Of a stretch of DNA of 64,000 nucleotides, positions 13,372-62,018 are shown piece by piece (position 1 is the stretch's first letter; the number at the start of each line of letters is the position of its first letter). This DNA is from a virus (Duplodnaviria; Heunggongvirae; Uroviricota; Caudoviricetes), in IMG/VR virus record IMGVR_UViG_3300045988_155182. One strand, 5' to 3'. Below the pieces are notes generated by a model. It made no database searches and had not been told where the DNA came from. It saw only the letters and a program-made list of their open reading frames with translations. A program made the translations under genes and the position numbers.

Positions 13372-14040
13372 ATGACCAAGATCTTTGTGGTTGGCGGCAC
13401 AAAGGGCGGGCCTGGCAAATCCACCGTTGCCCAGCAAATTGCCGTTTGCCTGAAAGTCAAAAAGAAGAAGAAGGTTTATATTACCGATATAGATATTCAG
13501 CGCACGACAACGAGCTGGTGTGAAGACCGTCGACAGAACGAAGACCTTGAGCTGATTCCTTTTGCATACGTTCAGGATGACATCATTAAGCACCTAAAAT
13601 CGCTTCAGGGTAGAGCTGAGTTTGTAGTGGTAGATGCTGGTGGCTTCGACTCCGAAATTCAGCGACAAGCGATGCTGATGGCCGACGTTATCATTATCCC
13701 GCTTCGTCCTAAGCGTCGTGATTTGAAATCTCTGCGTGATATCGATCCTATTATCGACAATGTTCGTAATGTAAACGATAAAGTGAAGGTCCGCGCGGTC
13801 ATGAACCAGTGTCCGGCTTTGCCATCACAAGTGTCTCGCATTCTGGCGGCTAAAGAGATTGTTGAGACGTTTGGCATCGAGTCTGCGCCAGTCAATCTAT
13901 ATAACCGCAACGTCTATGATGATGCGGAAGAGTCTGGTCGTTCTATCTTTGAAATGACCGGTAGCGAGCGCGACAAAAAGGCGGAAGCCGAGTTTGAAGA
14001 ATTTGTAGATTATCTGTTGAGTCTGGAGGAAAAAGAATAA
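13372..14040 (+). CDS. parA: ParA-family partition ATPase
   Basis: Deviant Walker A GGTKGGPGKST; ~220 aa; followed by a small RHH-like partner. Confidence 0.85.
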   Translation: MTKIFVVGGTKGGPGKSTVAQQIAVCLKVKKKKKVYITDIDIQRTTTSWCEDRRQNEDLELIPFAYVQDDIIKHLKSLQGRAEFVVVDAGGFDSEIQRQAMLMADVIIIPLRPKRRDLKSLRDIDPIIDNVRNVNDKVKVRAVMNQCPALPSQVSRILAAKEIVETFGIESAPVNLYNRNVYDDAEESGRSIFEMTGSERDKKAEAEFEEFVDYLLSLEEKE

Positions 14041-14399
14041 TGTCCATGAAAATGGGTGACCTAGCAAAGCGCAAAGAGCCTGATGCACCGGCTAAGAACA
14101 CAACTCCTTTGCGCCAACCAGTCAGACCACAGGGACGCCCGACTCGTGGCAAAGAGAAAATTAAAAGCCGCACAATGTCACTGGAGGACGAATACTTCGA
14201 ACTGCTGGAGATGATGAAGTTCATCCCTCGCTTCGAGAAGTTCACTCGTTCTGACGTGATTCGTGCTGCTATTTTCCATCTTGCGGAGAAGACACCGCAG
14301 GAAATCGAGGACATCGTGAAACTTAACGAGGCGATCACCGCTGCCGATGTCACGATGCGTACCGATGAAATCAAACGCGAGTTGATGAAGAAAGGTTAA
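14040..14399 (+). CDS. Small basic DNA-binding partition protein (ParG/RHH-like centromere binder)
   Basis: Start overlaps the parA stop; basic unstructured N-terminus then RHH-like SLEDEYFELLEMMKF...VIRAAIFHL. Confidence 0.5.
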   Translation: MSMKMGDLAKRKEPDAPAKNTTPLRQPVRPQGRPTRGKEKIKSRTMSLEDEYFELLEMMKFIPRFEKFTRSDVIRAAIFHLAEKTPQEIEDIVKLNEAITAADVTMRTDEIKRELMKKG

Positions 14400-26302: not shown

Positions 26303-27406
26303 ATGAAAAATAGCTTTGACAGAGCACGCGCTGCGGAGAACACCTCAAAAGAGGCGATAGAGTATCTCGAAAGAGCATCTCAAATGCAGGCCGTTATGAT
26401 CTCCCAGGTCAGCAATGACATGAGATTCTCGGACGCATTCATGTTATTCACTCGCTTATCTCTGCTGATAACCAGACGTCGGCCAGAGATCGCTGTTCAT
26501 TGTATTTTGATACATGTTTTGCCGCACATTGCCGATGTAAAAGTAAGTGACATTAATAGGTTCATGGTGAACCAACTGGTCAACCCACTAATACTGGATG
26601 GCAAAATTGTTATGGGCCGCCGCGTTTTCTCTCTGATGAAGCAGTTCCTTAGCTGGTGCGCCTTCCAGGGGATGATAGACGTGTCACCGTTGAACGATAT
26701 GTCACTTAACAAAGTTGCCGGTGGCGCAAAGCCCACACCTCGCGAGCGGAAGCTGACCGACGCAGAGGTATGGGTGTTCTGGAATATATGGGACTACTTC
26801 AATGTGTGTGCTGGTACAAAATGGGCGGCCAGGCTATGTCTTGTATCCGCAAGACGACCTGACGAAGTACTGCGGGCTAAAAAAAGTGAGTTCAATCTTA
26901 AGCGTGGGGTTTGGAATCAAGGCAAGAGGAACAAATCTGCCCGTGAGCATTCTCTGCCTTTAAGCTCATTAATGCGCACTTGTATTGAAGAGTTGTTCGA
27001 ATATGGTAAAGACAGCCAGTGGCTCGTGCCTTCGAATAAAAAAATCGGGAAAGACCTTCCTATGTCTAAAGTGGCAATAGCCCAGGCATTACGTCGTATT
27101 CTGGAACGACCAGAACTGATGGAGCTTGAGCCATTTACACCCCGAGATTTGCGCCGTACTGCGCGTAGTTACTTCCCAGCATTAGGCATAAGCCAGGAGG
27201 TATCACGTAAAATCATGAACCACAGTCTTGAGGGGATAGATCGGGTCTACGACCGGCACGATTATATGGACGAGATGCGAGACGCCTTAGAAAGTTTCTC
27301 GACGTACATCGCATCAATCGTAGAGCAACCGGATTTAGACGAAATTGACCACAAATTTAAGGGAGATCGTCTATCAACAGAGCTTATTCGTGTAAATTTT
27401 TCATAG
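26303..27406 (+). CDS. Tyrosine recombinase / integrase
   Basis: C-terminal catalytic region with RDLRRTARSY and HSLEGIDRVYDRHDY (H-x-x-R...Y pattern); start codon uncertain. Confidence 0.7.
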   Translation: MKNSFDRARAAENTSKEAIEYLERASQMQAVMISQVSNDMRFSDAFMLFTRLSLLITRRRPEIAVHCILIHVLPHIADVKVSDINRFMVNQLVNPLILDGKIVMGRRVFSLMKQFLSWCAFQGMIDVSPLNDMSLNKVAGGAKPTPRERKLTDAEVWVFWNIWDYFNVCAGTKWAARLCLVSARRPDEVLRAKKSEFNLKRGVWNQGKRNKSAREHSLPLSSLMRTCIEELFEYGKDSQWLVPSNKKIGKDLPMSKVAIAQALRRILERPELMELEPFTPRDLRRTARSYFPALGISQEVSRKIMNHSLEGIDRVYDRHDYMDEMRDALESFSTYIASIVEQPDLDEIDHKFKGDRLSTELIRVNFS

Positions 27407-43554: not shown

Positions 43555-43890
43555 ATGAAGGCCATCCCATTCGCGCTGTTGTTCCTTTCTTCGATCGTTG
43601 TGGCCGACACCACTGTTTATCAGTGTGAAATGTCTGTAGCCGACGTTAAGAATGGCGCTCTTACCGACGTCATAAAAGCACCATATGGAGCGATGGTCGT
43701 AGACAGCGGCGACCAGTTCTATGTTGTGCGTGACGATCGAGTGTTGTCATCCCCATATCTCACAAATCGTAATGGCAAATTAACCGGCGTCGGAGAAGAC
43801 CACTTCGTATACAACAAATACAAGGGCTTCTATGGCGTTCACGCTTCTCAGCAAAGCTACCTTTTCGATGACTGCAAGGAGGTTGGATAA
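43555..43890 (+). CDS. Hypothetical secreted protein
   Basis: N-terminal signal peptide MKAIPFALLFLSSIVVA. Confidence 0.5.
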   Translation: MKAIPFALLFLSSIVVADTTVYQCEMSVADVKNGALTDVIKAPYGAMVVDSGDQFYVVRDDRVLSSPYLTNRNGKLTGVGEDHFVYNKYKGFYGVHASQQSYLFDDCKEVG

Positions 43891-44102
43891 TGGCATTAAC
43901 ACTGGCAGGTCTGGAAATCGAGAAAACAAGCGGCTACTGGCGTGCTAAGGGTTTCAAGCAGCCTGGCATTCTTGAGCGTCTGGAACGTGAAGATGGGTAT
44001 ATCGTCCACCAGCGGCGTGAATGGCGTATGTACGATCCAGAAACAGGAAAACTGACTACAAAAGCCGGAACACTTTGGGGTCTGTTGAAGAAAATACACT
44101 AA
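43890..44102 (+). CDS. Hypothetical small protein
   Basis: 70-aa ORF; start overlaps the upstream stop. Confidence 0.4.
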   Translation: MALTLAGLEIEKTSGYWRAKGFKQPGILERLEREDGYIVHQRREWRMYDPETGKLTTKAGTLWGLLKKIH

Positions 44103-44110
44103 TAGCACCA

Positions 44111-44590
44111 ACCACTGCGGTGAGTAGTCTGCTCACCGCATTCGTATCCAGCTCATTATCCACTGTAGTCAGTAACAAAACCTTCCTACATATCTGCTAA
44201 CCACTGTAGCGAGTAGACAGCCTTTCATTCGCATCAAACAACCACTATGGTGAGTATTGGAGTGAGATGTCCAGCGGGTATCCACTATGGTGAGTAAGCC
44301 TTTGCTGTTTTCAGTGGATATCCACTCGCCACAGTGGATACGCTCAAAGATGAGGGCGACAACAACCACTATAGACAGTAAATTTTCCAAGATACCCAGT
44401 GACCACTAACCTCGCAGCCCTTGTTTCATCAGTGTTAGTGATCACTAACATTTAATTCAGTATTTGCATTCTACTGCCTACAGTGGTTATCAACAGATAA
44501 CGATACTCACTATAGTGGATAGCGAATTACAGATATAAGTAAGGCTCACTACAGTGGATAGTGAGCCTTACTACTAACTACAGTGGTTGG
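44111..44590. repeat. Iteron array (about 11 copies, both orientations) downstream of repA; incA-like
   Basis: Repeated (A/T)CCACT(A/G)T(A/G)G(T/C)GAGTA at 44111, 44158, 44199, 44241, 44281, 44321, 44365; inverted copies at 44480, 44506, 44546, 44578. Confidence 0.8.
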
Positions 44591-44591
44591 G

Positions 44592-45647
44592 CTATTTGCG
44601 AGTCTTTGCCTTGCGCAACTCTTCGAGAAGCGCCAGTTCTTCTTTACTCAACATGACCATTTTGCCTTCTTTTTCGTCAGGCACAACGTCGATAATGTCA
44701 TCTTGATTCTCATCTGGGAGGCTATATTCCGTCTCATCATTATCGATTTTTGTTGATATTTGTGCCTGGCGTAACTTTGGCCGCCTATAGTGGATGACGA
44801 AGTAGACCGAGTTTCCGCGCTTAACTTCCGTGTAATCGAGATATCCTATCTCTCGCAGCTGTTCCATAGCCTTTCTTACCGTCGCATTCTGAGTAATAGT
44901 GCGACTTGTCAGATTAAGTCTGGCGCGTAAACGGGCTAGTGATATTGGTGCCGGATCAGGCGGCAAACTTTCAATAAAAGTATAAAGCGCCTGAGCGGAT
45001 TCTTTTCTTGAGAGTTCGTTTATAGCCCGGAGTTGCAGAAGAACCTTTTTGTCGAACTGGTAGAGTTCGAAAATCTTGGGATCTGCTTTCAGTTCGACCG
45101 TATCGTGCTTGACACTATATTTTGCCGTTTGCACAAGATGCGTTACGTAAAACTCATCAGAGCCTTTGCTACGGAACGAGATGGTATTTGTGGCAATACG
45201 GCTTAGCGAACTGTCCAGGCGTTTGCGTAACTTCGCTGATGACCTGGCGGTCGGAATGCCACACAGCCTTACAAACTCAACGAACGGCAACGTGACAGTA
45301 TCGCCAACGACCTTGTGTTTGGCAAACGCGTGGATTATTCCCACCCACGTTTTAAAGTCGTTATCCATATCAAGCCGAAGGCCAGAGATCCTTATGTCTT
45401 CGTACCCTTCGGCTTTTGCCAGAGACAGCTGTTTGAGTTCAGCAGAGGCATCCATAGAGACCATTTGCCCCTTTCTTCCTCTGGATGTCGATTTCAGCGT
45501 CGGAACGAAGAGGCCCAGACGCATCAAAGCAACAGGCTGAACAGTGTTATTAGTGTTAGGAACCAACGTAACAACTTCGCCTGTCTTTTTATCTGTTTCT
45601 GAAAATGCTTCAACGATCGCTATGTTTTTATTGCCGTTTTCGCTCAT
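44592..45647 (-). CDS. repA: Replication initiator protein (RepA-like, iteron-binding)
   Basis: 351-aa ORF flanked on both sides by iteron arrays; size and context typical of Rep_3-type initiators. Sequence family not verifiable by eye. Confidence 0.6.
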
Positions 45648-45694
45648 TCCAAATGTCTCTTGTTATTCGACGGCTTTGGTGGCCTTTGCTGATT

Positions 45695-45807
45695 ACAGTG
45701 GATAGTAGCACTCATCACAGCGGTTATCCTACCGTCTATAGTGGTTTTTCTCCTCTCTATAGTGGTTGCTTTGCTCCCTATAGTGGATTATTCGCTCTCT
45801 ATAGTGG
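45695..45807. repeat. Iteron array upstream of repA (incC-like): CTATAGTGG repeated at exact 21-bp spacing
   Basis: ctatagtgg at 45736, 45757, 45778, 45799, plus degenerate copies at 45697 and 45716. Confidence 0.8.
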
Positions 45808-45839
45808 ATATCGATCATGTCTGAAGGCAGATGGCACAA

Positions 45840-46310
45840 CGGTTTGAGGTGGGCGGGGATCTTATTGGGTCTTTATGGGTCTCTTTGGTTCTCTTTGTGA
45901 TCTGAATTACTGGATCGGGCCTGTGGATAAAAATCAGAGGATTTCAAGAACAGGTAACTCTACTCTTCTGTGGATATTTAAGGACATAAGAATCATGACT
46001 AAGAGTAGAGTTTAAAATATATCTATGTATATCAGTATGTTAATGAAGAATTAAGTCATTAAGTTATCCATAAAAGACAATGTGCTCTACTCTCTACAGT
46101 GGATATATACAGCTCTCCAGAGTGGTTGTTTTACTCTTCATAGCGGTTATTCAGCTCTCTACAGAGGTTTCTTTGCTCTCCATAGTGGATGGCAACACCC
46201 TTTCAGACCAGTAACCGCAACGGCTAGAGGCGATCGGGGATCTCTTTGGATCTTCTATTTGATCTTACTTGGGATCTCTTATTTGGATCTATCCAGTGGA
46301 TAACTGGGAT
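45840..46310. other. Origin-like region: DnaA boxes, a GATC cluster, A+T-rich DNA and a third iteron set
   Basis: Perfect DnaA box TGTGGATAA at 45922-45930 and 1-mismatch boxes near 45969, 46064, 46296; at least 6 GATC within 46224-46295 (mostly GGATCT). Confidence 0.6.
46094..46188. repeat. Third iteron set, five degenerate copies at about 21-bp spacing
   Basis: ctacagtgg, ccagagtgg, tcatagcgg, ctacagagg, ccatagtgg at 46094, 46117, 46138, 46159, 46180. Confidence 0.65.
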
Positions 46311-46390
46311 AAGTAAAACAGGCAAATGCAGATTAAGGTATGCCTAATGAGTTATCGTAGCATCGGCCAATAACTACTGAAAAAACGATT

Positions 46391-47035
46391 ATGGATCTAA
46401 AACGCACGCGCTGGGTTCGTCGTCTTGAGGACGGCTCCTACACTATCGAATCAAATTCCAACCTGAATAAGCAGAAGTTACTTTGTGATATCTGCGGTAT
46501 AGCGGCGAAGTGCCCGATCTACGAAACCAGAATTAAACTTGATAAGGCTGGTGTGAACTTTCATTTGAATAGTTGTATCAGGTACGTTCCATTGCTCGCA
46601 TTTCGTAAACCGATCATCGGATTGGATGCGCCCTACTTCAACACACTCCGTTCAGGAGTAACGTGGCGAGATCGTTTATCACCAGACAAACTGATTTGCC
46701 TTGTATCCGCAGATACAGGAAAAATCATTCGTTTTGGGAAAGTAGACAAGGTTTACTCAGGCCCAGTTGACGAGATGTTGCGGAAACACAGCCGGTTTAA
46801 TCACCTCTGCATGGGTGGTGAGAAAATCGAGAAGGTTGAAGAAGTGATCCGCAAATCCTACGGACACTTCCTGACCAAAGATAGCCTGCTCACTGCAATC
46901 TACATCAGACATGTAAAACGTGAGTTCGACCTTGAATACCATAGCGAAGAAGAACTGAACCTTGTCGATCCACGTCCTAAAGCTGGCGTCATAAGCATAA
47001 ATGCAGCGCGTAAAAAGCCCACTGACGCGCTGTAA
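46391..47035 (+). CDS. Hypothetical protein
   Basis: 214-aa ORF immediately after the origin region. Confidence 0.45.
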   Translation: MDLKRTRWVRRLEDGSYTIESNSNLNKQKLLCDICGIAAKCPIYETRIKLDKAGVNFHLNSCIRYVPLLAFRKPIIGLDAPYFNTLRSGVTWRDRLSPDKLICLVSADTGKIIRFGKVDKVYSGPVDEMLRKHSRFNHLCMGGEKIEKVEEVIRKSYGHFLTKDSLLTAIYIRHVKREFDLEYHSEEELNLVDPRPKAGVISINAARKKPTDAL

Positions 47036-61424: not shown

Positions 61425-62018
61425 ATGATTGCAGCCGAAAAAATCAAACAGCGAAAGCGCGACAACTCTCTTCGTGACCTCTGGAGAACACCTGACTGGC
61501 TGTTTTCTGCCATTCAACGTTATCTTGGGGTGACATTTGATGTTGACGTTGCCTGCAACAAGGACAATGCAAAGCTGCCTAATTTCATAGGCGTTGAGCG
61601 TGATGCTTTGAAATCTGAATGGGGACAGCCAGGTACAATTGCCTTCCTCAATCCCCCCTACTCCAAAATCTCCCCCTGGATTGATGCGGCTATACGTGAG
61701 CAGGCTCGCGGAGTTACAACAGTGATGCTAATTCCTCAATCCCTAGATACAAAGTGGTATGAGCGTGCAACAGAGTGTGCGAATGAGACGATTATTCTGT
61801 CTGGTGGCCGCGTAGCGTTTGTCGAGCCTGACGTCAATCTGGGTCAGGTAGAAGTAAACATCAACCCAGGTGGCAGTATGCTCGTTGTTTTTCGAGGATT
61901 CTGTCAGGACGCTGGGCACTCTATAAGCAAGATCCCTTTGGACGTCATGAAAAGTCTGGGAGGGTATGATCCTGCGAATGTGATCAGGAAAAAAAGACCA
62001 TCAAAGAAGGCTGCTTAG
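61425..62018 (+). CDS. DNA N6-adenine methyltransferase (phage Dam-like)
   Basis: Catalytic NPPY motif (LNPPYS) and WRTPDWLF block. Confidence 0.7.
   Translation: MIAAEKIKQRKRDNSLRDLWRTPDWLFSAIQRYLGVTFDVDVACNKDNAKLPNFIGVERDALKSEWGQPGTIAFLNPPYSKISPWIDAAIREQARGVTTVMLIPQSLDTKWYERATECANETIILSGGRVAFVEPDVNLGQVEVNINPGGSMLVVFRGFCQDAGHSISKIPLDVMKSLGGYDPANVIRKKRPSKKAA

Follow-up and report, generated by a model that had tools for sequence, protein, structure and literature searches.

Does the group of repeats around a single minus-strand gene in this phage DNA constitute a plasmid replicon, to which family would such a replicon belong, and which of its parts would serve as the origin? The window, that is the whole stretch of 64,000 nucleotides analysed, had been given a first-pass annotation in which this locus was read as a P1-like plasmid replicon. 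The homology of its initiator, a layout matching that of P1 and its occurrence on plasmids all bear this reading out. The segment 44103-46390 is very probably the replicon by which an SSU5/pLF82-type phage-plasmid persists as a plasmid prophage; it would belong to the iteron-controlled theta replicons with a RepA of the RepFIB/P1 family.

Over positions 44000-46400 the sequence matches that of Escherichia phage Cyrano, which is pLF82 of E. coli LF82, at 100% identity. The replicon, with its initiator, repeats and origin, is already known: it is the typing reference 'IncFIB(pLF82-PhagePlasmid)' in PlasmidFinder, and MOB-suite types it as IncFIB. Identity of the window with OV696614 over its entire length was also considered and was rejected, as coordinates drift outside the replicon region. 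The one part of the replicon for which we could find no description, in a literature search whose scope ended before the primary pMT1/pFra and D6/SSU5 replicon papers, is a tandem doubling of the origin; the remainder is catalogued. The pMT1 replicon has reportedly been likened to RepFIB, P1 and P7, by Hu in 1998, Lindler in 1998, Golubov in 2004, and Gilcrease and Casjens in 2018. A preprint of 2026 describes phage-plasmid mutants with altered copy number linked to RepA, but was not relevant, the family being unrelated.

The initiator and the repeats around it

The 351-aa initiator candidate named in the first-pass annotation is an intact open reading frame on the minus strand, and Pfam HMMs place its product in the Rep_3 family (WH1-WH2; PF01051 and PF21205). 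Rep3_N matched residues 115-225 with 42.2 bits against a cut-off of 22.4 (E 1.3e-10), passing the gathering score. Rep3_C matched residues 236-281 with 22.6 bits against a cut-off of 21.1 (E 1.3e-4), a marginal pass that is strengthened by the 49-60% identity of the protein to P1 RepA and F RepFIB Rep. Identity to the F-plasmid RepFIB initiator is 60% over 329 aa (E 5e-143) and includes the C-terminal tail; identity to P1 RepA is 49% over 267 aa (E 5e-93). The acidic tail of about 58 aa has no counterpart in P1 RepA. Two matches above curated cut-offs, together with this level of identity to characterised initiators, settle the family of RepA, and the initiator homology that the annotation had made a point to be checked is therefore present. 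A sequence search of the PDB gave no match at E <= 1, and a comparison with NCBIfam gave no meaningful match. On direct reading of the sequence, the Shine-Dalgarno region upstream of repA is weak.

The coordinates of repA and of the other features are collected in Table 1.

Table 1. Features of the replicon (positions in the window)
Feature	Position	Strand	Basis	Remarks
Whole replicon cassette	44103-46390			2.3 kb; control array, repA and two origin modules
Downstream iteron array	44110-44588			incA / RepFIB E-K equivalent; presumed copy-number control (handcuffing)
Downstream array, cores 1-8	44110, 44158, 44199, 44240, 44280, 44309, 44329, 44364	-, -, -, -, -, +, +, -
Downstream array, cores 9-12	44478, 44510, 44549, 44578	+, +, +, +
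Conserved block within control array	44391-44460		Alignment	No full iterons
repA	44592-45647	-	Pfam and homology	Predicted iteron-binding replication initiator, 351 aa, WH1 + WH2
Exact iteron core within repA	44785-44795	+	Core scan	Encodes I-H-Y-R
Module A iteron array	45686-45812	+		6 copies; cores at 45693, 45715, 45736, 45757, 45778, 45799; presumed repA operator/promoter region, incC equivalent
Module A heptamer region	45854-45917			Six G(A/G/T)TC(T/G) units about 10 bp apart
Module A DnaA box	45922-45930	-	Box scan	TTATCCACA, perfect
Spacer between modules	45936-46085		Alignment, box and promoter scans	29% G+C
Module B iteron array	46086-46192	+	Core scan and alignment	5 copies; cores at 46094, 46117, 46138, 46159, 46180
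Module B GATC cluster	46229-46290			Six Dam sites at 46232, 46239, 46249, 46261, 46273, 46286; equivalent of P1 oriR methylation/opening region
Module B tandem DnaA-box-like sites	46291-46314	-	Box scan	Position as P1 oriR DnaA site

The iteron core CTAYAGTGGWT has 13 exact matches in the 64-kb window, and all 13 lie within 44158-46104; about 0.1 would be expected by chance (hand estimate). When up to two mismatches were allowed, 60 cores were found compared with 40.9 +/- 6.2 in shuffled sequences, and the excess was concentrated in the replicon. The repeats adjoin repA, as binding sites of its product should; 23 are grouped into three arrays, and one more lies inside the gene. The predicted RepA binding sites are about 19 bp long, with a consensus of about TACTCnCTAYAGTGGWTA, and in both upstream arrays they recur at two helical turns. 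The copy inside repA is invariant in six relatives. F encodes the same IHYRRP motif by different codons, without resemblance to an iteron; the position corresponds to the end of repA in P1, where the last iteron of incA is located.

Downstream of repA, an 11-copy array in both orientations had been described at 44111-44590. The array and the two orientations stand; the count does not, since we find 12 copies at 44110-44588, of which two (44110 and 44309) are weak. Six of the eight distal copies share one orientation, and the other two, with the four nearest repA, have the opposite one. P1 incA is oriented in the same way, its proximal copies running in the direction of the origin iterons and its distal copies inverted. 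In five relatives the cores of the downstream array are invariant; what changes there is the spacers and the number of copies. Downstream iterons of FIB replicons have a control role (PMC11983097). The block without full iterons inside the array is nearly invariant across six aligned sequences and carries ACCACTAAC twice, at 44404-44412 and 44441-44449. An Rfam scan of 43800-46500 at E <= 1 returned no match, and hence no evidence of a known antisense or control RNA.

Upstream of repA, the annotation had listed four iterons at exact 21-bp spacing, a perfect DnaA box, several boxes with one mismatch, five further iterons and at least six GATC sites within about 75 bp. All of these are present. 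Its picture of one origin with boxes beyond it does not hold: with the five iterons and the GATC cluster, the entire origin module is present a second time. Segments 45680-45985 and 46075-46330 align with a mean column identity of 76%, and form a tandem pair that we refer to as module A (repA-proximal) and module B (repA-distal).

In module A the four regularly spaced iterons (45736 to 45799) are joined by two more, giving spacings of 22, 21, 21, 21 and 21 bp. They are nearer the consensus than those of module B, five of six cores having 0-1 mismatch, and 82% of the columns of the array are invariant in six relatives. In most lineages the distance from the rep start up to the beginning of the array is about 44-45 nt; exceptions are 26-41 nt, or 103 nt in Phytobacter. 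Half of the six heptamers are still GATC (45858, 45899 and 45913), and one extra GATC lies at 45813. The eroded units, GGTCT or GTTCT, are invariant in all six relatives. Five relatives carry TTATACACA at the position of the DnaA box, so the perfect box is specific to this lineage. Boxes with one mismatch were found at 45969-45977 (-) and 46064-46072 (+), both in the spacer, and at 46295-46303. Four of the 19 DnaA-box matches in the window fall in a 382-bp part of the replicon, compared with about 0.1 expected pro rata; over the whole window the count is not above chance.

Conservation is lowest in the spacer between the modules, with 53% invariant columns; in pHCM2 its G+C content is 43%. The spacer contains a promoter-like site directed to repA (TTAACA-16-TATATT, 46043 to 46016). 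A consensus scan for promoters and terminators gave only weak, unconserved sites for the repA promoter, and its one 'terminator' call was rejected as it consisted merely of GATC repeats. A further candidate, CTGTGA-17-TGTAAT over iterons A2/A1, is conserved as judged by eye. Because it fits just 8 of 12 consensus positions, we have left the repA promoter unplaced.

The iterons of module B, at 46094-46190, are spaced by 23, 21, 21 and 21 bp and are more degenerate than those of module A. Their array has 83% invariant columns, or 95% among the five non-window relatives. The six GATC sites lie in 58 bp (46232-46289), the sole 100-bp stretch of the window with six; the window mean is 4 per kb. This cluster is 98% invariant among the five non-window relatives and aligns with the Dam sites of P1. 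It is followed by the boxes TTATCCACT (46295-46303, one mismatch) and TTATCCCAG (two mismatches).

Comparison with known replicons

The incC-repA-incA/oriR layout that had been proposed for the locus agrees feature by feature with the curated features of P1. The P1 replicon (oriR/incC-repA-incA; IncY) is likewise the maintenance replicon of a phage-plasmid, and has the same order of parts. A P1-type origin, with DnaA box(es), GATC heptamers and about five iterons at 21 bp, is found twice in the window, and the incA-like downstream array, with copies in both orientations, once and in 12 copies. The 20-mer TGGATCTATCCAGTGGATAA in the GATC/DnaA part is identical to P1 oriR. P1 also shares an iteron spacing of 22, 21, 21 and 21 bp, a distance of about 40 bp from the last iteron to the first GATC, and a GATC region of 55-58 bp followed by tandem DnaA boxes. 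The iteron sequence, in contrast, is unrelated (core CAGCACACAT in P1, CTAYAGTGGWT here). P1 further differs in having nine downstream iterons and not 12, a single origin module, and parAB after incA, whereas the ParA gene here is about 30 kb away. With iterons that are not those of P1, the window replicon appears to be P1-like in its working and not a member of IncY.

Among the classical replicons RepFIB, and not P1, is the nearest. In the RepFIB replicons of F, P307 and pO157, upstream origin iterons and downstream control iterons flank rep as they do here (PMC11983097), and in F the GATC cluster and DnaA boxes are again distal to the upstream iterons. The iterons too are homologous: the best pair, TATAAGCTGTAGTCAGTAA of F RepFIB and TATCCACTGTAGTCAGTAA of the window, is identical at 16 of 19 positions. 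Three iteron core positions differ together, CCA versus AAG, and because of this difference cross-incompatibility with F-FIB is not assured. F has a single upstream region (repeats BCDD') where the window has two modules, and the host element here is a tailed phage.

Closer still are pMT1/pFra of Y. pestis, pHCM2 of S. Typhi and SSU5, which have the same replicon subtype. Their RepA proteins are about 91% identical to that of the window, and their upstream regions, with both modules, are 80-81% identical. The downstream array is homologous but differs in its number of iterons, the DnaA-box sequence differs at one position per module, and the inter-module spacer is AT-rich in the window alone. 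Large Pantoea plasmids (for example P. agglomerans AB378 unnamed2; MOB-suite rep_cluster_807), with a Rep that is 69% identical, have the same core and again a tandem pair of modules upstream, in each of which iterons are combined with a GATC cluster and a DnaA box. Unlike the window, AB378 unnamed2 is a 184-kb plasmid outside the phage collection, and its proximal module keeps 4-5 GATC sites.

By analogy with the literature on P1, F-FIA and F-FIB, RepA monomers bound to the origin iterons would act with host DnaA to open the adjacent Dam-methylated heptamers and load the host replisome. Hemimethylated GATC sites would be sequestered once the origin has fired. RepA on the proximal iterons would repress its own promoter, and the downstream array would titrate RepA and handcuff the origin iterons, giving a low copy number. 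Judged from its sequence, the 2.3-kb fragment would be expected to replicate autonomously and to depend on DnaA or Dam.

Two upstream modules and their relatives

The two upstream modules of the window compare with one in F, P1 and PhiR41_1. Two modules are the rule in relatives with a RepA of 67-100% identity, among them Pantoea, Cedecea, Yersinia pMT1 and Salmonella pHCM2. Both are kept in SSU5, pMT1, pHCM2, Enterobacter and E. coli AH04, with 82-84% invariant columns compared with 53% in the spacer. An automatic count gave about 19 species-level loci with two arrays, and pHCM2-type loci likewise have both. The comparative set came from a pattern scan that demanded two good iterons 21 bp apart, and is therefore biased to loci with well-kept arrays. 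Pairwise identities between the Pantoea modules and those of the window are all 0.58-0.70, values that do not separate shared from recurrent duplication. A partial match in pTB212 was rejected as a natural deletion of module A; it reflects the arbitrary start of a circular record.

Among the species-level loci mapped, 5-7 GATC sites and one or more DnaA boxes come after each distal array that is complete. Proximal GATC sites number 0 in Pseudescherichia and Phytobacter, 1 in Entomohabitans and Ca. Pantoea haifensis, and 3 or 4-5 elsewhere. Thus among the lineages examined there was no loss of the distal GATC cluster, while the proximal one was lost repeatedly. From these comparisons we infer that the origin was probably doubled in tandem in an ancestor of this subfamily, that module B (46086-46314) is probably the indispensable origin proper, and that module A (45686-45930) would survive chiefly to provide the operator of repA or additional control iterons, its GATC/DnaA part decaying. 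A more far-reaching reading, which we put forward only tentatively, is that a P1-type oriR was duplicated in tandem long ago and that its copies divided the labour: the proximal copy would keep its iterons for operator or control purposes and erode variably elsewhere, and the distal copy would be the Dam/DnaA-dependent origin. It would apply to the subfamily of pMT1, pHCM2, SSU5, pLF82 and the large Pantoea plasmids.

It is also possible, though we consider it somewhat doubtful, that both upstream modules are independent functional origins, perhaps condition-dependent, with for example one strongly regulated by Dam/SeqA and the other less so. Each module has the full list of parts (iterons at 21-bp spacing, repeated heptamers and a DnaA box), both are much better conserved than the spacer, and most Pantoea species and Cedecea keep 4-6 GATC sites in both. 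The non-GATC heptamers of module A are invariant in six relatives, which speaks for continued constraint and against simple decay, and module A may retain origin activity. Several lineages, however, have no proximal GATC or nearly none and keep the proximal iterons, so that the proximal opening region appears to be dispensable in them; and the single-module relatives F and P1 manage with one.

The reverse assignment, in which module A is the working origin, like P1 incC, and module B supplies copy-number damping iterons (control or handcuffing) or is a relic, seems unlikely. It would accommodate the better match of the module A iterons to the consensus, the location there of the sole perfect DnaA box, and the fact that the origin iterons of P1 adjoin repA. 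It would not explain why module B retains its six well-conserved GATC sites, or why it is the proximal cluster and never the distal one that has been lost in the lineages examined. The homology to the P1, F and pKpn-type origins also falls in the distal GATC/DnaA segment.

Cassette borders and plasmid state

The backbone of PhiR41_1 agrees with the window at 100% identity up to 44102 and, as read from the alignment, at about 96% from 46391 on. Between these borders it carries another replicon, the RepA of which is 48.8% identical. The cassette is bordered by the stop codon of a cra-like gene on one side and the start codon of an ASCH-domain gene on the other, and repA is the sole minus-strand gene in the neighbourhood. 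The replicon appears to be a cassette with clean borders that is exchanged whole between phage backbones which are nearly identical in other respects.

Maintenance as a low-copy plasmid in lysogens had been suggested from the sequence. It is supported by the identity to Cyrano, for which about 5.5 plasmid copies per cell were measured and virions were produced (PMC9928086), and by 461 matching plasmid records in PLSDB, 174 of them with at least 99% identity over the region. Integration, which would have spoken against a plasmid state, was looked for among complete E. coli genomes; in 5,426 of these, 172 places hold the cassette, none of them chromosomal. On these three grounds (Cyrano identity, copy number with virions, and 0/172 chromosomal), the element displays the extrachromosomal maintenance of a tailed-phage genome by which the SSU5 supercommunity is recognised.

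That the RepA-iteron unit is the lytic (vegetative) origin of the phage, and not a plasmid-maintenance replicon, is very improbable. The unit does lie within a long same-strand block of genes for replication, recombination and nucleotide metabolism, but repA alone is on the minus strand locally, and the cassette is exchanged as a whole between near-identical backbones. Its initiator is a homologue of those that P1 and F use in plasmid mode, Pantoea plasmids of 184-558 kb and Y. pestis pMT1 are maintained by the same type of replicon, and for lytic growth the element encodes a helicase, a primase and a polymerase of its own. Hardly credible is a chance collection of repeats and boxes, or a decayed, non-functional replicon with maintenance by something else: the FIB replicon of the F plasmid is crippled by a weak ribosome-binding site (PMC11983097) and the Shine-Dalgarno upstream of the window repA is weak too, but the iteron, DnaA-box and GATC statistics exceed chance, the iteron cores are conserved where spacers drift, RepA is intact and near-identical in many of the 461 plasmid records, and IncFIB is the sole replicon type listed in the non-conjugative records opened.

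As a replicon, the locus repeats what is known: the RepA replicon of SSU5-like phage-plasmids is of the IncFIB type. The importance of the group, which includes Y. pestis pMT1 and S. Typhi pHCM2, is already appreciated, and some SSU5-like elements carry resistance genes, for example CTX-M-15 (pECOH89). What the locus adds is modest and concerns its fine anatomy, namely the swapped 2.3-kb cassette, the doubled origin and the graded loss of Dam sites in one copy. This graded loss provides an inexpensive comparative handle on the origin parts needed for function and for copy-number control, and the fine anatomy also bears on the design of curing or incompatibility cassettes against this plasmid group. 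A duplication with divided labour, if true and undescribed, would offer a natural series of intermediates for the parts that an iteron plasmid origin needs.

Remarks in the first-pass annotation on ParA, a toxin-antitoxin module and a lytic replisome are consistent with the deposited annotation of Cyrano. In our own Pfam scan of selected proteins, ParA was the sole match bearing on these remarks. The same scan identified a tyrosine recombinase and a Dam-family methylase.

Initiator, iterons and family

The minus-strand open reading frame proposed in the first-pass annotation as a 351-aa initiator was located, and its product matched Pfam Rep3_N (42.2 bits; cut-off 22.4) and Rep3_C (22.6 bits; cut-off 21.1). 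RepA was 60% identical to the plasmid F RepFIB initiator over 329 residues that include the acidic C-terminal tail (E 5e-143), and 49% identical to P1 RepA over 267 residues (E 5e-93); identities to SSU5 RepA and to the Rep of a 184-kb Pantoea agglomerans plasmid were 91% and 69%. RepFIB is therefore the closest classical family; P1 RepA belongs to the same lineage at a greater distance. This placement agrees with published typing: most SSU5-supercommunity phage-plasmids type as IncFIB (PMC7969092), the SSU5 (IncFIB) replication gene is included in typing tools (bioRxiv 10.1101/2025.09.12.675607), and 'IncFIB(pLF82-PhagePlasmid)' is routinely used under that name as a replicon type.

Exact matches to the 11-nt iteron core CTAYAGTGGWT numbered 13 in the 64-kb window, all within 44158-46104, against a chance expectation estimated at ~0.1. 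Downstream of repA, the predicted array of repeats in both orientations was present, but with 12 copies and not 11; six of the eight distal copies share one orientation, and the other two and the four nearest repA have the opposite one. Among relatives the copy number of this array differs and its cores are invariant, the behaviour expected of a tunable control locus. Upstream, the four copies reported at exact 21-bp spacing were all found, as part of a six-copy array (spacing 22, 21, 21, 21 and 21), and the further five iterons followed at spacings of 23, 21, 21 and 21. The perfect DnaA box was recovered, with three one-mismatch boxes in the next 380 bp, as was the GATC cluster, six sites in 58 bp, a density not matched elsewhere in the window. 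The sequence observation is confirmed.

Features of the replicon and of other genes in the window
Feature	Position	Strand	Remark
Small ParA ATPase	13372-14040		13266 in OV696614
119-aa ORF	14040-14399	+	abuts ParA stop
Tyrosine recombinase	26303-27406		25049 in OV696614
Replicon cassette	44103-46390		2.29 kb
Block within downstream array	44391-44460		~70 bp
repA	44592-45647	-	351 aa
Iteron core within repA	44785-44795		codes I-H-Y-R
Module A iterons	45686-45812		six copies
Perfect DnaA box	45922-45930	-	module A
Module B	46086-46314		distal
Module B iterons	46094-46190		five copies
GATC cluster	46232-46289		module B
Module B DnaA-box end	46284-46314		columns 640-670 of alignment A3
Dam-family methyltransferase	61425-62018	+	Pfam PF05869, E 2.5e-38

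In the curated P1 record the order toward repA is a DnaA site, five Dam sites in 55 bp, a ~40-bp gap and five incC iterons, spaced 22/21/21/21 bp, within which the repA promoter lies, followed by repA and nine incA iterons. The order of parts in the window is identical and the distances are nearly so. Orientation also agrees, since the three incA copies nearest repA are oriented like the origin iterons and the six distal ones are inverted, the same pattern as in the window's downstream array. P1 oriR moreover aligns in sequence with the GATC/DnaA segment of the distal origin module, sharing an identical 20-mer, TGGATCTATCCAGTGGATAA. The P1-type layout proposed earlier therefore describes correctly how the replicon operates, but by sequence comparison its membership is of the RepFIB lineage, not IncY. 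P1 iterons are unrelated in sequence to those of the window, whereas F RepFIB iterons are clearly homologous (best pair 16/19 positions, the three differences adjacent).

Two smaller observations concern repA and its downstream array. An exact iteron core within repA is invariant in six relatives; F has the same protein motif, but in codons unlike an iteron, and given the motif we estimate the chance of the core by codon choice at ~1/18, so it may be a chance match. Its position corresponds to the point at which P1 repA stops and the last incA iteron starts, and the C-terminal tail of ~58 aa may thus lie over what was once control-array DNA. The block that separates the inverted half of the downstream array from the direct half is near-invariant in six relatives and carries ACCACTAAC twice, which is not an iteron. 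The block had no Rfam match, and two RefSeq records annotate a hypothetical 46-aa protein in this part of the array.

A doubled origin upstream of repA

The upstream region consists of two origin modules, a doubling that the first-pass annotation overlooked. Positions 45680-45985 and 46075-46330 align at 76%, and each module has an iteron array, a ~40-bp spacer, six heptamer units ~10 bp apart and a DnaA box. GATC is present in 6/6 heptamer units of the distal module (B) and in 3/6 of the repA-proximal module (A), where the rest read GGTCT or GTTCT. F RepFIB, in contrast, has a single module, as do P1 and PhiR41_1, with upstream regions of ~320 bp. The two modules are both conserved in SSU5, Y. 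pestis pMT1 and S. Typhi pHCM2, in a plasmid of Enterobacter hormaechei and in a less closely related E. coli plasmid; invariant columns make up 82-84% of the iteron and heptamer parts, compared with 53% of the inter-module spacer. The eroded heptamers of module A are themselves invariant among these relatives. The perfect DnaA box is confined to the window lineage, and the other relatives carry TTATACACA.

One genome per species was scanned for two iteron cores 21 bp apart, and each of the 77 loci returned (~30 from Enterobacterales) was mapped for rep, iterons, GATC sites and DnaA boxes. Reps 67-100% identical to that of the window came from many Pantoea species, Cedecea, Phytobacter, Pseudescherichia, Entomohabitans, an Erwiniaceae isolate, Kluyvera, Yersinia, Salmonella and Escherichia. 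In these loci two upstream arrays are the rule where sequence extent suffices, and beyond every complete distal array lie 5-7 GATC sites and one or more DnaA boxes. GATC sites at the proximal array number 0 in Pseudescherichia and Phytobacter, 1 in Entomohabitans and Ca. Pantoea haifensis, 3 in further loci, and 4-5 in most Pantoea and Cedecea, with 3 plus 1 in the window group. A single module is present in a more remote group that shares the iteron core (Rep 44% identical).

Pantoea agglomerans AB378 plasmid unnamed2 (300-2600) and further Pantoea loci share the iteron type and the origin doubling, with a Rep ~69% identical. The Pantoea plasmids bearing it are large (184-558 kb), so this phage-plasmid replicon lineage also serves large plasmids outside the phage collection.

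The DnaA-box end of module B (TGGATCTATCCAGTGGATAA) has the P1 oriR sequence in the window lineage, where SSU5, pMT1 and pHCM2 have TGGATCGGTCCTGTGAATAA. The inter-module spacer beside module B is replaced by AT-rich sequence in the window lineage only. Together these features suggest a short recombination tract with another replicon.

Roles of the modules and proposed mechanism

On the comparative patterns of loss, the indispensable origin, dependent on Dam and DnaA, is probably the distal module. The array nearer repA would have been kept for its iterons, most plausibly to serve as an autoregulated repA promoter/operator and an extra pairing partner. The invariance of module A's eroded heptamers in the pMT1/pHCM2/SSU5 group counts against simple decay, and keeps alive the alternative that both modules are working origins. 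Origin doubling and its graded erosion among relatives add a modest detail, one perhaps not yet described, judged from literature exclusive of the primary pMT1 and SSU5 replicon papers; this detail would gain somewhat more interest if new and functional.

Initiator homology, phased iteron arrays, GATC and DnaA-box content and an extrachromosomal state are all demonstrated here, and work on P1, mini-F and FIB replicons suggests how they might act together. One basis is the handcuffing model, reportedly that of Chattoraj. RepA monomers bound to the origin iterons would act with host DnaA to open the methylated heptamer region, and hemimethylation after firing would hold back re-initiation. RepA bound at the promoter-proximal iterons would repress repA, and the 12-copy downstream array would titrate RepA and handcuff the origin, giving low copy number. 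Dissection of the FIB replicon provides another basis (PMC11983097).

The element also encodes a Dam-family N6-adenine methyltransferase. If GATC-methylating, this enzyme could modify the origin Dam sites independently of the host.

Plasmid state and exchange of the replicon

PhiR41_1 and the window share a 100% identical backbone as far as the stop codon of a cra-like gene (44102), and ~96% identity resumes at the start codon of an ASCH-domain gene (46391). Between these flanks PhiR41_1 carries a different RepFIB-family replicon (locus L004, 2048-3955); its Rep is 48.8% identical, its iterons differ, and it has a single module. The replicon is therefore an exchangeable cassette, and it holds the sole minus-strand gene of a long plus-strand block.

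Positions 44000-46400 of the window match Escherichia phage Cyrano (OV696614) at 100% identity and Salmonella phage SSU5 at 83%. This 2.4-kb sequence recurs in 461 PLSDB plasmid records (Escherichia, Enterobacter, Yersinia, Salmonella, Citrobacter and others), of which 437 are non-mobilizable; those inspected individually type as IncFIB. Cyrano is plasmid pLF82 of adherent-invasive E. coli strain LF82, an SSU5-like phage-plasmid present at 5.5 plasmid copies per cell by qPCR on repA, whose virions are produced spontaneously and induced by ciprofloxacin (PMC9928086). Outside 44000-46400 the window and OV696614 are not collinear, with coordinates that shift from gene to gene and an offset of 1 bp near 61425. 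It follows that the window derives from a close relative carrying indels and not from the Cyrano record itself, and LF82 need not be its source.

Among 5,426 complete E. coli genomes the cassette occurred in 129, at 172 places, all in plasmid records and none in chromosomes. This distribution and the copy number measured for Cyrano (PMC9928086) bear out maintenance as a low-copy plasmid, and answer the possibility that the element integrates rather than replicating as a plasmid. The earlier interpretation is thus supported. At that level the replicon is already known: its RepA is annotated, its type is named, and its plasmid state has been measured experimentally. The finding as submitted is of low interest.

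The remark that a lytic replisome is also encoded agrees with the Cyrano annotation, which has helicase, primase, ligase, Pol III alpha and epsilon, and SSB. The 119-aa ORF beside ParA is annotated in Cyrano as 'RelE/ParE putative toxin' and had no Pfam match at E <= 0.01; from its position it may be a partition adaptor, the 'RHH' partner named earlier, rather than a toxin.
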